Positions 1,019 to 57,183 are shown, counted from the first letter of the stretch. The stretch: DNA of 57,411 nucleotides from Bacilli bacterium (GCA_017447305.1 JAFSNY010000006.1:1-57411); one strand, 5' to 3'. The notes: generated by a model from the letters alone, not told the origin. Made by a program: numbers and translations.

Positions 1019-1075
1019 AATATAATAAAAGTTATCTGTATTGTAAGCTTAATAGTTTTCTTTATATTTTTACAG
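1019..1075 (-). promoter_or_regulatory. promoter module CTG-box / -35 CTTACA / -10 TATATT
   Basis: RC reads CTGTAAA..(28 nt from CTG)..CTTACA-N17-TATATT, then AAGGAG and the ATG at 980. Confidence 0.6.
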
Positions 1076-1092
1076 ACAACCTTAACACAAAA

Positions 1093-1127
1093 TAGCGGGA
1101 GCTGGATTCGAACCAGCGACTTTTAGG
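1093..1127 (-). tRNA. tRNA 3' half (positions 39-73)
   Basis: Reads CCTAA-AAGTC-GCTGG-TTCGAAT-CCAGC-TCCCGCT-A. Starts immediately after the TAA of the 1128-1853 ORF. Confidence 0.7.
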
Positions 1128-1853
1128 TTATATTAAATGATTTTCATATAAAAACTTTCTTTTATCTTCATAAGATAGCTTTTGATATTCTGACCATCTA
1201 ATTCGTTTCAAACATTTCCAACCTAATTGACTCAAGAATTCTGTGCGTTCTTTATCGTGTTCTAAACCTTGTTCAGTATAATGTTGTTCTCCATCTACTT
1301 CAACATAAGTTTTTGTTTCAGGCCACGCATAATCTAAAACATATTTATCAACTCGATATTGAAATTTCGCATCAATAAAAATTTTGTCAAAGTATTCTTC
1401 TGCGTAAGATTTCGGTTTATTTAACCAGTTGCAGTGAGTATTTCGCAAATTTTTTATTGCTGCAGCACTTAATTTCTCTTTCGTCTCTTCGGTTGTTTTA
1501 TGTCCTTTCCAAATTGATCTATCTGGATTCTCTTTGCAGAATTTCTCGTGGCGAGTTAAATCACACTTACGTGAACAAATTTTGCCACAGAATTTACAAA
1601 TAGCATCAATTTTTGGATGATACCCATAAAAACCTTTAAATTCGCTTTCATGTTCAATTTTTCTATGTTCTTGTAAAATTCTTCTAGATGAAAAATCACA
1701 ATTACATATAGAACACTTCCAAATTTTAGAATTCTTCTGTATTCCTCGATTTGGATTTTTAAGACATTGTTTGGAAATGTGATTTCCAAGCAGTGCCCCA
1801 GTAGCAAACTCTTCATTACAATACTTACATGTGTGTTTTAACTTTAACTCCAT
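1128..1853 (-). CDS. free-standing homing endonuclease-like protein (three C2H2/CCHC zinc fingers + Vsr/DUF559-type PD-(D/E)xK domain)
   Basis: CKYCNEEF..HISKQC, CSICNCDF..HRKIEH and CKFCGK..HEKFC fingers. C-terminal YVLDYAW..YVEVDGEQHY..GWKCLKRIRW. Much more AT-rich than flanks; sits inside a split tRNA. Confidence 0.75.
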   Translation of the reverse strand: MELKLKHTCKYCNEEFATGALLGNHISKQCLKNPNRGIQKNSKIWKCSICNCDFSSRRILQEHRKIEHESEFKGFYGYHPKIDAICKFCGKICSRKCDLTRHEKFCKENPDRSIWKGHKTTEETKEKLSAAAIKNLRNTHCNWLNKPKSYAEEYFDKIFIDAKFQYRVDKYVLDYAWPETKTYVEVDGEQHYTEQGLEHDKERTEFLSQLGWKCLKRIRWSEYQKLSYEDKRKFLYENHLI

Positions 1854-1892
1854 GTATTATTTATAACATGAGCTAACCACTGCTCTAAAATA

Positions 1893-1976
1893 TAGCGGGA
1901 ACCAGAGTCGAACTGGTACTAGCATTATCTGTCCCTGGGTTATGAGCCCAGTATCTTACCATTAGACTATCCCGCG
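1893..1976 (-). tRNA. initiator-type tRNA-Met(CAT)-like, 84 nt with enlarged variable region
   Basis: CGCGGGA-TA-GTCT-AATGGTA-AGAT-A-CTGGG-CTCATAA-CCCAG-(17 nt)-ACCAG-TTCGACT-CTGGT-TCCCGCT-A. C1 is unpaired and three G:C pairs sit next to the loop. Confidence 0.6.
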
Positions 1977-1990
1977 TCAAATTTCAATCG

Positions 1991-2021
1991 CCTAACGAGC
2001 TACCAGCTGCTCTATCCCGCG
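1991..2021 (-). tRNA. tRNA 5' half (positions 1-31)
   Basis: Reads CGCGGGA-TA-GAGC-AGCTGGTA-GCTC-G-TTAGG. TTAGG and the acceptor strand are complementary to the 3' half at 1093-1127. Confidence 0.7.
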
Positions 2022-2026
2022 ATAAC

Positions 2027-2150
2027 AAACACACTGCAGGAATTCCGATTCGTCACCTGCTAGGATCGACCCACAGTCCCGATATCTGTGAGTTAAGGAT
2101 TAACTCGCTACGTCCTATGTCCACTTAATTGATCGACTAGACAATATCTA
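2027..2150 (-). ncRNA. GC-rich structured spacer RNA in the tRNA operon
   Basis: Non-coding, markedly GC-richer than the genome. Hairpins GAGTTAA-TCC-TTAACTC and GCAGG...CCTGC. Lies between tRNA-Pro and the split tRNA. Confidence 0.4.
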
Positions 2151-2224
2151 TCGGAGTGGCGGGATTCGAACCCACGACCCTATGCGCCCAAGGCATATAC
2201 TCTACCAGACTGAGCTACACTCCG
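2151..2224 (-). tRNA. tRNA-Pro(TGG)
   Basis: Hand-folded cloverleaf: acceptor CGGAGTG/CACTCCG, anticodon arm TATGC-CTTGGGC-GCATA, T arm GTGGG-TTCGAAT-CCCGC. Confidence 0.85.
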
Positions 2225-54948: not shown

Positions 54949-54956
54949 TAGGATAA

Positions 54957-55013
54957 CTGATTAAAAAATAATATAAAATAGTCATTGACAAGATGACTAT
55001 TTTTTTCTATATT
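54957..55013 (+). promoter_or_regulatory. terminator-promoter module (leaderless output)
   Basis: AACTGATTA..(28)..TTGACA-N17-TATATT. Hairpin AATAGTCAT-TGACAAG-ATGACTATT plus T7. Confidence 0.7.
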
Positions 55014-55841
55014 ATGAATATGGTAAATAAAGAACGACATATTAAATTTTATAAGTTATTTAAACTTAATGGCTGGAATGGTTTGCTCAATATTAATGGT
55101 GGAGCAATTACTCTTAGCGATTTCGTTAAACAAGATATATCTTGGGATAATGCTGTAGATAATATTTATTCAATCGATATGTGGAATACGTTCATTCAAA
55201 ATAAAGCTGAACAATTTGCAGAATGGGCAATTAAACAACCGTTAAATAACTTGGGCAAAAAGAAAGATTTAATTAATTGGTTTAAAGGTATTATTGGTGA
55301 ATATTTTTATGTGGAAAATGGTGAAGATTTGATGAAACAAACATGGGATGCTCTTGGCAAAAATTATGCTATTGAGCATATTGTTCCTGCCAGTTTTTAT
55401 AGATTAACACCTCATACAAGGGTCGAATTTGGCGAAGATTTCGGTGTTGATGCAATTGGAATTAATCGTTATGATTTAGTATCAGTAATCCAAATTAAGA
55501 CATGGAATATTTGGAGTAAAGAACTTATTACGTATGGTGATGTTATTACGAATTTATTCATGGATGGAATTTGTAGAGAATGGATTACAAAAGATCAAGA
55601 AGAGTCTATGTTTGTATTATGGTTAGGTCAGATTAAAAATATTGCAAAACCTTTGCAAAATCCAGCATGTCCGGCTTATAATAAAGTTCATTATTTTGGA
55701 TTTGATCAGTTGTCAGAAGTATTAGCTGGTTATGAACGTTTCTTTGCATTATCTAATAATTTTAAAATATCATTGAAAAATATCAAAAATTATACTATTA
55801 ATTGTGATAGTGAAATTTTGAGAAAAATTGATAGTTTATAA
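55014..55841 (+). CDS. PD-(D)-QxK nuclease-fold protein, cassette 2
   Basis: FGVDAIG..(14 aa)..IQIKTW. The track start lies in promoter 54957-55013. ATGs at 55014 and 55020 are 1 and 7 nt after TATATT. Confidence 0.55.
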   Translation: MNMVNKERHIKFYKLFKLNGWNGLLNINGGAITLSDFVKQDISWDNAVDNIYSIDMWNTFIQNKAEQFAEWAIKQPLNNLGKKKDLINWFKGIIGEYFYVENGEDLMKQTWDALGKNYAIEHIVPASFYRLTPHTRVEFGEDFGVDAIGINRYDLVSVIQIKTWNIWSKELITYGDVITNLFMDGICREWITKDQEESMFVLWLGQIKNIAKPLQNPACPAYNKVHYFGFDQLSEVLAGYERFFALSNNFKISLKNIKNYTINCDSEILRKIDSL

Positions 55842-55871
55842 TTTAGCTTAATAAAATTTTAAAGGTAATAT

Positions 55872-56072
55872 ATGAGTCAATTTGAATTGGAATTTGATGA
55901 AAATGGTAATCCTATAACAGGTAGGACTTTTACTAAGAATGATTTTAAGAAGATGGAAAACTTCGTTTTGTCATTCCAGCCGGTTACTATTGTTACAAGA
56001 CGTTATGCTTCGATTGACTCTTTTAATGCTCACATAGAAATACCAACCAATAGGATTAATAATGGGATTTAA
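55872..56072 (+). CDS. hypothetical protein
   Basis: ORF track, with AAGG upstream. Confidence 0.5.
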   Translation: MSQFELEFDENGNPITGRTFTKNDFKKMENFVLSFQPVTIVTRRYASIDSFNAHIEIPTNRINNGI

Positions 56073-56580
56073 AAAAGTTATTGAAAATGTTGAAGCCGGA
56101 TATCTTGAATTAAGACAAGCTGCAAAGGTTGTGTTCAAGAATATGGATGCTGGTTCAACTCATTATAAAGGTGAATACTGCTATCCATTTTATCAGACTG
56201 GTGCATATTTCTATGAAGGACCTGATACTTATGACAAGACTTCTTTTCTTCCGGTTAAGATTGACAATGATATGCGTCGTTTTATCAATGCACTTCGTAA
56301 TCTGAATGAATTGATTAAACCGATGTTTTCGTGGGATATCGAAAAAGATAAATCTCGTGATGACACAGGAAATCTTGTATTTGGCGATGTTAGAGGCTGG
56401 TGTTATCAAGGTCATGGAGTAAGCACAAGAAAGTTTCATGGTCATGCAGCTTTGGTTGGTTCTATTATTCGTGGTGTGTATAAAGATGCATTCCTTGCAG
56501 AATTAATAGAATTGACAAAGGAAAAAGGCAGTAAGCTTAATAAAAATGACTTTATGTCTGTCCAAGCATTTTCAAGATAA
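56062..56580 (+). CDS. hypothetical protein
   Basis: ORF track. Confidence 0.55.
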   Translation: MGFKKVIENVEAGYLELRQAAKVVFKNMDAGSTHYKGEYCYPFYQTGAYFYEGPDTYDKTSFLPVKIDNDMRRFINALRNLNELIKPMFSWDIEKDKSRDDTGNLVFGDVRGWCYQGHGVSTRKFHGHAALVGSIIRGVYKDAFLAELIELTKEKGSKLNKNDFMSVQAFSR

Positions 56581-56612
56581 ATTTAACTTAATAAAATCCA
56601 AGGAGATAAAAA

Positions 56613-57083
56613 ATGTCGAATGAAATTAACATGATTGCAGAATTGCTCAAGCAGAATCCTGAACTTACTGGTAAGCTGAAGGAAGTAATTGCTGAAATCG
56701 ATGCAGAAAATAAAACACCGAAGCCTGAAGATTTCGCAAGGCCGACTGCAAAGCGTTCATATTATATCGTGCATTTCGATATTGACCAAAGGGATGCTGA
56801 TTGTATTAGCGTTTCTACACGTGAAATCTATGGTAAGCTGGAATTGGACGAATTGATTAGGCTTACTATTCTGGCTAATTACAGTCTATTGTCTGACTAT
56901 GATGGAGAATGGTATAATCTTGGACCGCTGGAAGATTACTTGAAGGACTATCTTGATGGTTTCTTCTATGACCCTTGTAACCGTTTTAAGATTGATGATG
57001 TCAATATTACTGGTTATGATGCAGAAAAGAATGAATTTTTCGAAATCGATATGCCTGATTTGCTGGAACTAGGAATTTATTGA
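56613..57083 (+). CDS. YYIV.FDIDQRDADCI-family paralog, C-terminally truncated by a frame change
   Basis: ORF track, AAGGAG upstream. The +1 frame from 57079 to 57129 encodes IDEAYHKYFDVEEYED, which matches the C-terminus of the 47171 paralog. Confidence 0.65.
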   Translation: MSNEINMIAELLKQNPELTGKLKEVIAEIDAENKTPKPEDFARPTAKRSYYIVHFDIDQRDADCISVSTREIYGKLELDELIRLTILANYSLLSDYDGEWYNLGPLEDYLKDYLDGFFYDPCNRFKIDDVNITGYDAEKNEFFEIDMPDLLELGIY

Positions 57084-57154
57084 TGAAGCCTATCATAAGT
57101 ATTTCGATGTAGAAGAATACGAAGATTAAGCTTAATAGAATTTAAATACTGGGG

Positions 57155-57183
57155 TTTACAAATAACCCTAGTTTTATTATATT
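57155..57183 (+). promoter_or_regulatory. sigma70-type promoter
   Basis: GGGGTTTACAAATAACCC hairpin carries the -35, then N17, then TATATT. Confidence 0.55.

Follow-up and report, generated by a model that had tools for sequence, protein, structure and literature searches.

A conserved CTG box on PeSL-like promoter cassettes of a predicted T4-like phage from the ruminant gut

PeSL cassettes and the modules of the window

Promoter-early stem-loop (PeSL) cassettes are a feature of T4-type phages (PMC2839356, PMC4122927) and have been described in RB49/phi1, T4/PST and KVP40/nt-1 (Arbiol 2010, PMC2839356; Comeau 2014, PMC4122927). Each comprises ~100 bp with a strong σ70-like early promoter, an A/T-rich 5′ part that extends from the previous stop codon, and a terminator stem-loop, which can take five placements, one of them overlapping the −35 element (PMC2839356, PMC4122927). 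PeSLs cluster among ORFans in hyperplastic regions and mediate modular gene shuffling (PMC2839356, PMC4122927). Here we analyze a 57.4-kb stretch of A/T-rich DNA filed under a Bacilli bacterium (GCA_017447305.1, JAFSNY010000006.1:1-57411; hereafter the window), in which a combined terminator and promoter recurs between genes together with a conserved upstream sequence, the CTG box. The stop-and-restart cassette is already known; the CTG box is the part that has not been described before.

The cassette of the window is very probably of the PeSL type, judging from its layout. Like the PeSLs, it belongs to a T4-like genome and repeats a near-consensus σ70 promoter with a 17-bp spacer in many intergenic regions. 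Its 5′ part is A/T-rich (84% A+T at −60 to −47 vs 66% window-wide; positions are counted with the −10 hexamer set at −12 to −7) and starts at the stop codon of the previous gene, and its terminator stem-loop can overlap the −35 element, as it does in about half of the copies. The cassettes are set among small ORFan genes (18 of 20 tested genes beside modules have no Pfam match), and gene-sized indels between close relatives are bounded by cassettes.

The cassette also differs from the described PeSLs. A conserved G-N-T-R-W-CTGAA element occupies −68 to −59 here and is absent from 25 RB49 early promoters and PeSLs, where no trinucleotide is enriched 22–35 nucleotides (nt) 5′ of the −35 element (maximum 4/25). 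The −10 element is C-TATATT rather than TATAAT, and the stem-loop mostly encloses the −35 element, whereas in phi1/RB49 it mostly lies between −35 and −10 or over −10. For RB49/phi1, experiments demonstrated mini-circles as well as activity of promoter and terminator; the activities of the cassette described here are predicted from its sequence. A specific element near −63 is mentioned neither in the PeSL papers (PMC2839356, PMC4122927) nor in the logos of T4-like early promoters (PMC1524935).

T4-type early promoters carry UP-like (upstream-element-like) A tracts (Nolan 2006, PMC1524935). The promoters of the window resemble them in a (G)TTTAC/TTGAC −35 element, a purine at −36, A-rich upstream DNA, a location before early genes, ORFans and tRNA genes, and the presence of separate TATAAATA late promoters, and differ in that the published logos lack a specific C/G-containing element near −63 (PMC1524935). 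The morons of lambdoid phages (general knowledge, PMC1524935) are likewise accessory genes organized as autonomous units with promoter and terminator, whereas here the terminator of one unit is fused with the promoter of the next in one stereotyped, genome-wide cassette.

Promoter core, CTG box and hairpins

An earlier note on this DNA had proposed a repeated promoter module with a CTG box at a fixed distance 5′ of the −35 element, and both points were confirmed. The pattern TTKACA-N17-TATATT occurs 25 times in the window vs 0.04 expected, and a slightly looser −35 pattern gives 37 credible σ70-type promoters, nearly all directly 5′ of a Shine-Dalgarno sequence and start codon. CTG begins 27–29 nt 5′ of the first −35 base in 29 of the 37 (1.07 expected; binomial P = 7.6e-38), the distance being 28 nt in 21 promoters, 29 nt in 6 and 27 nt in 2. 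The note had drawn two boundaries too tightly: modules do occur throughout its range of 1019–57183, which missed a boxed module at 415–477, and the box itself, although real, is longer than CTGAAA. Of 152 unique promoters in the window plus relatives, 118 have the box, and their logo reveals an extended element, G-N-T-R-W-C-T-G-A-A, at approximately −68 to −59 and centered at approximately −63.5. Relative to the C of CTG, a G is found at −5 in 100/118, a T at −3 and a purine at −2 in 112/118; CTG is followed by two A residues and then by an A-rich stretch, with an A run at −58 to −53. The distance to the −35 element in these 118 promoters is 28 bp in 94, 29 bp in 14 and 27 bp in 10. The CTG box is a real, strongly conserved and clade-specific addition to the cassette.

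The remainder of the core is similarly uniform. Among unique promoters from both the window and the relatives, 117 have a spacer of 17 nt between −35 and −10, 2 have one of 16 nt, and none has 15, 18 or 19 nt. A C occupies −13 in 29/34 window promoters, a T run covers −17 to −15, and position −36 is a purine (G or A). An UP-like stretch, A-rich and then T-rich, spans −60 to −41. The nearly identical spacer that the note had pointed out in two tRNA-operon promoters is present at 2541 and 4325: the 13-nt sequence TAGAACATAATTT is common to the tRNA-cluster promoters 2513–2541 and 4297–4325 (minus strand) and recurs with one change in the 415-kb relative described below. Only the second of the two promoters (4297–4325) has a CTG box.

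Hairpins accompany many of these promoters. A stem that encloses the −35 element and ends just before a T run was found in ~19/37 window promoters (counted by reading the fold results), and a helix of at least 7 Watson-Crick pairs surrounds the −35 element in 76/152 unique family promoters. Stems of at least 7 contiguous pairs are present in 13/34 window promoters that match a stricter −35 pattern. A contiguous helix of at least 7 pairs surrounds the −35 element in 39% of the 152 unique promoters vs 5.7% of permuted controls, in which the 5′ and 3′ halves were swapped between promoters. The composite design that the earlier note described is real, but the −35 element sits in a hairpin in only about half of the promoters, not usually. 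The two hairpins that it quoted are present, at 41196–41224 and 40310–40338, and so is the T run after the 3′ arm, which is seen in the terminator scan.

A strict terminator scan of 37–57 kb returned 16 sites vs 5.6 expected, and the five strongest plus-strand promoter-associated terminator sites sit on promoters. The form of an intrinsic terminator (G+C stem, short loop, U run) is found in a subset, at 39646–39675, 40310–40338, 44110–44139, 44967–44990 and 47759–47791; several other promoter stems are A/T-rich and fail the strict scan. Non-Watson-Crick positions in the stems, read on the sense strand, are G:T in 66 cases vs A:C in 16 (P = 1e-8), so selection has acted on the stems as RNA, transcribed in the same direction as the upstream gene. 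A sense-strand G:U bias of this kind is what a terminator needs, and it would be missing from a DNA cruciform. An Rfam search found no family at the modules. The helix excess, the T runs and the G:U bias lend sequence support to the proposal that one compact element ends the upstream gene and starts the next, an arrangement already published as the PeSL.

Many modules in the relatives (contigs L007, L112, L019, L093 and others) have AATTCTGA near −50 and TCAGAATT in the spacer, which together make an A/T-rich stem around the −35 element. Modules with this stem hold up to three copies of CTGA/TCAG. The CodY-box palindrome likewise has TTCWGAA as its core.

Relatives of the window were collected by a pattern scan of IMG/VR followed by BLAST, and the module is common to all that were found. 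Two are 92–96% identical to the window: 3300028832_000001 (IMGVR_UViG_3300028832_000001; 415,750 bp) and 3300028887_000071 (230,319 bp). The others are 3300037454_000359 (47 kb, about 86% identity), 3300032030_003087 (7 kb, about 75%), 3300037455_000543 (424,163 bp, about 70%), and a clade more distant from the window (L009/L075/L118; 89–411 kb). Members of the distant L009 clade retain the A tract and T tract and have degenerate forms of the box (CTGAAA, CTGTAA, CTTGAA, CCGAAA).

A scan for the full module in one genome per species, across 185,579 species, gave 27 stretches. Four of these are phage relatives binned into metagenome-assembled genomes (MAGs); the other 23 are single matches without similarity to the window, in genomes of 34–62% G+C. 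The architecture is therefore specific to this phage clade. Contigs of the clade up to 191 kb long (L141, L144, L150, L134) lie in GTDB representative MAGs assigned to Methanobrevibacter (goat gut) and to Bacilli, and L141 is 93% identical to window 47561–48299. These contigs were most likely mis-binned by composition, because an archaeal host is incompatible with σ70 promoters, and we rejected the MAG bins as a guide to the host.

Possible functions of the CTG box

We favor, with a probability of roughly one half, a reading in which the module is an early-gene cassette of the PeSL type and the CTG box is the DNA-level site of a candidate sequence-specific protein. The cassette comprises a strong σ70-type promoter, (G)TTKACA-17 bp-C-TATATT, into which, in about half of the copies, the intrinsic terminator of the upstream gene is folded, with the stem flanking the −35 element, the −35 element in the loop and the U tract serving as spacer. 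From its sequence, a cassette of ~60 bp would then end one transcript and start the next. The box, in double-stranded DNA, would be bound just 5′ of the region of the UP element and the α-subunit C-terminal domain (αCTD), a position typical of class I activators. The protein would act on the early promoters as a group, raising their activity when infection begins or silencing them at a later stage, and could be encoded by the phage (and possibly injected) or by the host. The parts of this reading are graded separately. That the box acts on initiation at the DNA level at all seems to us an even chance; that it would need a dedicated factor, rather than RNA polymerase itself, is somewhat less likely than not.

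Class I activator sites, of which the CRP site centered at −61.5 is an example, are dyad-symmetric (CRP, TGTGA-N6-TCACA; FNR, TTGAT-N4-ATCAA). The CTG box resembles them in its center at approximately −63.5 and in its fixed placement, 28 ± 1 bp 5′ of the −35 element and just beyond the αCTD. 

Several observations weigh against the favored reading or limit it. Compared with class I sites, the box has no dyad, no second half-site and no match to the CRP or FNR consensus, and inspection of the logo by eye likewise matched it to none of CRP, FNR, Fis, IHF, LexA, CodY and Spo0A. The −35 and −10 elements are near-consensus, so an activator should not be needed, and no candidate binding protein was found for the box. 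Where the upstream gene ends 24–45 nt before the −35 element, the box is present in 69/73 promoters, and a gene-end function at the level of RNA or translation would also give a close link between stop codon and box. In promoters whose box position is overlapped by coding sequence, retention of the box is just 37%, so some promoters, at least, can dispense with it. The hairpin in its common position likewise keeps a constant distance from the −35 element; fixed spacing alone therefore does not exclude a role in RNA. One rearrangement (contig L123) has its junction within coding sequence and not in a module. Finally, the pattern used to fetch the loci of the relatives included the box; pattern-matching promoters were set aside, which leaves a sample that is not fully independent. 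Among unique promoters of the relatives outside the fetch pattern, CTG is found at 27–29 nt in 53/78. When loci were fetched by protein instead, the box was present in 4/6 promoters, the single query having returned near-identical contigs only.

The box might act at the RNA level, as part of the 3′ untranslated region that ends the upstream transcript, where it could be a processing or decay site or a helper of termination. The association with upstream gene ends in 69/73 promoters fits this idea, as do the location of the box 0–13 nt after the stop codon in most cases and its roughly constant distance from the terminator hairpin in the common class of modules. We nevertheless consider it unlikely. 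The box is present in 6/9 window promoters that have no hairpin (counted by reading the fold results against the promoter lists). In ~10 modules, which we call class 2, the terminator lies 5′ of the −35 element and the box is buried in the stem, of which it makes up the 5′ arm (GACTGGG...CCCAGTC is one such stem). Downstream of CTG, the bases in these stems vary with compensation, while CTG itself is kept in most of the modules listed, one having CCG paired with CGG. A single-stranded RNA signal would not be kept there. The box is also present at 37151, in a divergent region without a co-directional upstream gene, where no co-directional transcript should cross it. Where an open frame of at least 60 codons runs through the box position, CTG is kept in 10/27 vs ~3% by chance, a rate 12 times that expected within coding sequence. 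The stop codon of the upstream gene lies anywhere from −4 to +13 nt relative to the C of the box and in all three frames. Elsewhere in the window the box is not enriched: GNTRNCTGWA occurs 17 times vs 5.9 expected, with ~10 copies at the promoter position and ~7 elsewhere, the level of chance. Taken together, the tests of promoter association, hairpin independence, stem, stop codon, coding overlap and divergent region favor a function in double-stranded DNA that is linked to initiation, and speak against a signal in RNA or translation. The earlier note had likewise placed the box at the DNA level; the argument it used, from fixed spacing alone, is weak, and these indirect tests are what favor its conclusion.

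A function in DNA could also be exerted through host RNA polymerase without an extra factor, if the αCTDs recognized an extended UP element of which the box is the 5′ end. We regard this as rather improbable. UP-element recognition involves A/T tracts in the minor groove and does not specify C/G, and the UP consensus has no G/C positions, which leaves the near-invariant C and G of the box, and the G five bases upstream, unexplained. The distal UP element suggested in the earlier note fails on the same point, as it does not account for the invariant C and G positions. The layout is UP-like in that the box adjoins the −60 to −41 stretch, which is first A-rich and then T-rich, and its AA could begin that A tract. 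UP-like A tracts are also a known feature of the early promoters of T4-type phages (PMC1524935). The RB49 early promoters, which are strong and A-rich upstream, show nothing comparable.

A further alternative is that mobile gene cassettes are delimited by the box, which would serve as a recognition or crossover site for homologous recombination of the PeSL style or for site-specific, integron-like recombination. Homology to the relatives that are 92–96% identical breaks at the box at 4360, 7429 and 42917, each time at CTG or at most 6 nt 5′ of it, and three other breakpoints (39705, 40375 and 45010) fall about 10–25 nt past the −10 element; between breakpoints, whole genes have been inserted, deleted or replaced. 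Each early gene would then be a mobile unit bounded by G-N-T-R-W-CTGAA and the transcription start, comparable to the mobile units of integrons, with the difference that here they are built into promoters. PeSL-mediated exchange has been demonstrated in RB49/phi1 (PMC2839356). However, breakpoints at module edges are expected under any mechanism because the neighboring genes are unrelated, and the L123 junction lies inside coding sequence. The box does not match the integron core site GTTRRRY (consensus compared with the logo), having C where the core needs R; no recombinase or integrase was seen among the window proteins; and the box has no inverted partner except in the class-2 hairpins. A recombination signal, moreover, needs no fixed helical distance from the −35 element. 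We therefore doubt strongly that the box is a cassette edge, and its use as the recognition or crossover site of a phage-borne system for gene-cassette exchange is more doubtful still.

The least tenable proposal, that the box is a by-product of translation termination with stops in several frames (TRA-C-TGA, TAA-T-CTG-TAA), is largely refuted by the stop positions: the TGA of CTGA is the actual stop in 15/94, as at 53660–53665, where GACTGA overlaps the stop of the open reading frame (ORF) 51980–53665 as the earlier note stated, a stop directly precedes CTG in 11 cases and is separated from it by one base in 12, but only 38/94 stops lie in or directly at the box, in all three frames, the invariant C and the G at −5 (100/118) are not parts of stop codons, and the box is fixed to the −35 element rather than to the stop codon.

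Other candidate identities were examined and rejected. Comparison by eye of the logo with further motifs (Fur, ArcA, PhoB, TyrR, MotA box, DnaA box, integron core site) gave no fit. The TTGAC of some boxes was considered as the −35 element of a tandem promoter, but it occurs in a subset only and has no −10 element at 16–18 bp. TATAAT-like hexamers 9–12 nt after CTG are confined to the A/T-rich part at 37–57 kb and are not found in the relatives, and were therefore judged compositional. Pairing of the GAAA of the box with TTTC in the spacer, as an extension of the terminator, was rejected since neither adjoins the stem, as was mimicry of an anticodon loop or T-loop, since the variants break the loop rules.

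These results extend PeSL-type cassettes to a deep-branching, uncultivated clade of 230–424 kb T4-like ruminant-gut phages and provide a precise 62-bp signature for early genes and for members of the clade in metagenomes. If the box is a protein site, it would constitute a phage-private layer of control over ordinary σ70 promoters, through which one factor could boost or switch off dozens of early promoters together, and would suggest, in a form open to testing, how the early program of a very large phage is coordinated. If the box is not a protein site, the module is an ordinary, though unusually stereotyped, case of a known cassette. The module offers a clean and testable way to approach the control of early genes and the exchange of cassettes in giant phages that are uncultivated, and would serve synthetic biology as a ready-made compact insulator that joins a terminator and a strong promoter in ~60 bp.

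The phage and the modules along the window

The window (G+C 26–44%) is part of an uncultivated, distant T4-like jumbo myovirus from the ruminant gut. It codes for two helicases, gp46/gp47-like SbcCD nuclease subunits, GroEL and a thymidylate synthase to which an HNH domain is joined. ARAGORN finds eight tRNA genes in it, and the Rfam tRNA model matches at 12 places. Five consecutive minus-strand genes at 14.5–20 kb each have the T4 late-promoter octamer TATAAATA directly 5′ of them (15538–15545, 16543–16550, 18244–18251, 18678–18685 and 20055–20062), and all five lack the module. The T4-like genes and late octamers identify the window as a fragment of a distant T4-like myovirus with an early/late scheme in the style of T4. 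Megablast of 8 kb of the window against 50,697 phage records gave no match. In a tblastn search of phage records, the gp46-like protein was below 60% identity everywhere, and at ~29–30% for the T4-like top matches listed; these low identities argue that the phage has no cultured close relative. An identical helicase protein is present on ruminant gut metagenome contigs.

The modules described first lie on the minus strand. In the following, the distance in nt from CTG to the −35 element is given in brackets after the box. The module at 415–477 has the box GGAGCCTGAAA (29), the −35 element TTTACA, 17 nt and TATATT, and that at 1019–1080 has GTTGTCTGTAA (28), CTTACA and TATATT. Between them, the promoter TTTACA-17-TATATT at 806–834 lacks a box, the upstream frame reaching to ~17 nt before the −35 element. 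The first tRNA-cluster promoter, TTGACA-17-TATATT with the spacer described above, is at 2513–2541, without a box. At 2973–3035, the box GTTGACTGAAA (29) directly follows the TGA stop of ORF 3031–3624, and there is no clear hairpin. The second tRNA-cluster module, at 4297–4359, has GTTAGCTGAAA (29), and homology to the 415-kb relative begins at its CTG. The modules at 4734–4795 and 6075–6135 carry the variant box GCGACCTGAAC (28) and the box GTTGACTGAAT (27), respectively. At 6721–6782 the box is again GTTAGCTGAAA (28) and a hairpin encloses the −35 element; at 7366–7428, GTAATCTGTAA (29) accompanies a hairpin around the −35 element and a homology breakpoint at the 5′ edge of the box. A class-2 module occupies 7837–7898, where GATGGCTGAGA (28) is the 5′ arm of the hairpin 7875–7894, upstream of the −35 element TTTAAA. 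The promoter at 9488–9516 has a hairpin around the −35 element and no box, an open frame crossing the box position. There follow GTTGTCTGATT (28) at 10421–10482; AGTAACTGAAT (28) at 11537–11598, with a TAA stop directly 5′ of CTG, the −35 element ATTACA and no hairpin; and GTTATCTGAAT (29) at 12161–12223, also without a hairpin. The module after the GroEL gene (12858–12919) has GGTATCTGTAA (28) and the −35 element CTTACG in the loop of the hairpin 12868–12891, with a T run.

Farther along the minus strand, the promoter at 28982–29010 has no box and an open frame across the box position. Three modules with a hairpin and T run are found at 31451–31512 (GTAATCTGTAA (28), hairpin 31461–31489 around the −35 element TTTACT), 32804–32865 (variant box GTAATCTGCAT (28), hairpin 32813–32843) and 35220–35281 (GTCATCTGAAT (28), hairpin 35231–35258). 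A divergent pair follows, with the minus-strand promoter CTTACA-17-TATATT at 37109–37137, which has no box, and the plus-strand module at 37146–37207, which has the box GAGAGCTGAAA (28) and no co-directional upstream gene. The promoter of the gp46-like gene lies on the plus strand at 20689–20717 and has no box at 28 nt; an overlapping TTTACA-17-TATAAT at 20679 has CTGTAT at 27 nt.

The remaining modules are all on the plus strand. The first, at 38252–38314, has the variant box GATACCTGCAT (29) and the −35 element TTTACT. Two share the box GTCGACTGAAA (28) and have 13-bp hairpins: that at 39625–39686 holds the −35 element CTTACG in the loop of hairpin 39646–39675, followed by a T run, and that at 40288–40349 holds TTGAC at the apex of hairpin 40310–40338, followed by TTTTTC and TATATT. 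The module before the helicase gene (41174–41235) has GTCAACTGAAA (28) and hairpin 41196–41224. At 42912–42972, the box GATAACTGAAT (27), with hairpin 42935–42962, is where homology to the relative L120 restarts, at CTG. The modules at 44085–44146 (GTAATCTGTAA (28), hairpin 44110–44139) and 44939–45000 (GTTGTCTGAAT (28), hairpin 44967–44990) both have a T run, and an indel breakpoint lies ~10 nt past the −10 element of the latter. A 15-pair hairpin (47759–47791) marks the module at 47739–47800, box GCTGTCTGAAA (28). The box GTGGACTGAAG (28) of the module at 50376–50437 lies inside the end of ORF 49510–50397. The promoter at 51130–51158 has a hairpin and no box, the upstream frame ending 7 nt before the −35 element. 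The last boxed modules are those at 51889–51950 (GGTGACTGATA (28), hairpin 51911–51939, T run), at 53657–53718 (GATGACTGATT (28), whose TGA is the stop of ORF 51980–53665, with the A/T-rich hairpin 53678–53712) and at 54952–55013 (GATAACTGATT (28), hairpin 54975–55003, T run). A promoter with a hairpin around the −35 element and no box is found at 57155–57183.

Additional observations concern gene exchange among the relatives. On the ruminant-gut contigs L123 and L124, the identical helicase protein is preceded by the genes found at 46.1–47.7 kb of the window, and the junction gacgaagacgaag|tcatacat (window 41093 and 47729) joins two coding sequences. Three minus-strand ORFs (1128–1853, 3031–3624 and 8236–9114) have no counterpart in the 415-kb relative; they are insertions within the tRNA cluster or beside it. 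Two of the three have a DUF559/Vsr-like endonuclease domain; C2H2 zinc fingers are found in the first ORF, and only a weak zinc-finger match in the second. The three ORFs look like free-standing homing endonucleases.

Outside the modules, a composite of terminator and late promoter occupies 18311–18244 (minus strand), where a stop codon is followed by a hairpin and its T run and then by TATAAATA. The Rfam 'cow-rumen-2' RNA (RF02947) has a full-length match at 20292–20398 (minus strand; 100 bits, the gathering score being 66). The match falls where the late-gene block and the gp46-like gene diverge, in the intergenic DNA that separates them, which suggests that this orphan RNA motif belongs to these jumbo phages. 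The GroEL gene is at 12920–14536 (minus strand; PHROG 5725, E = 6e-158), a rhomboid-domain protein is encoded at 32947–33492 (minus strand), and a short N6 DNA methylase fragment at 50444–50902 (plus strand). The 559-residue product of ORF 25282–26961 (plus strand) matches HNH endonucleases over approximately residues 180–396 and thymidylate synthase over residues 397–559, the latter match covering the C-terminal part of the family profile; possible explanations are a td gene that has been split, an insertion resembling an intron or intein, and an artifact of the start codon. ARAGORN called a tRNA with a 2-nt anticodon at 2775–2850 (minus strand). Further tRNA-like Rfam matches that ARAGORN missed lie on the minus strand at 8050–8150, 9082–9161, 5374–5461 and 5476–5562; the first is 101 nt long and possibly contains an intron, and the last two are weak tandem matches in an internally repeated stretch of 44% G+C at 5.4–5.6 kb.

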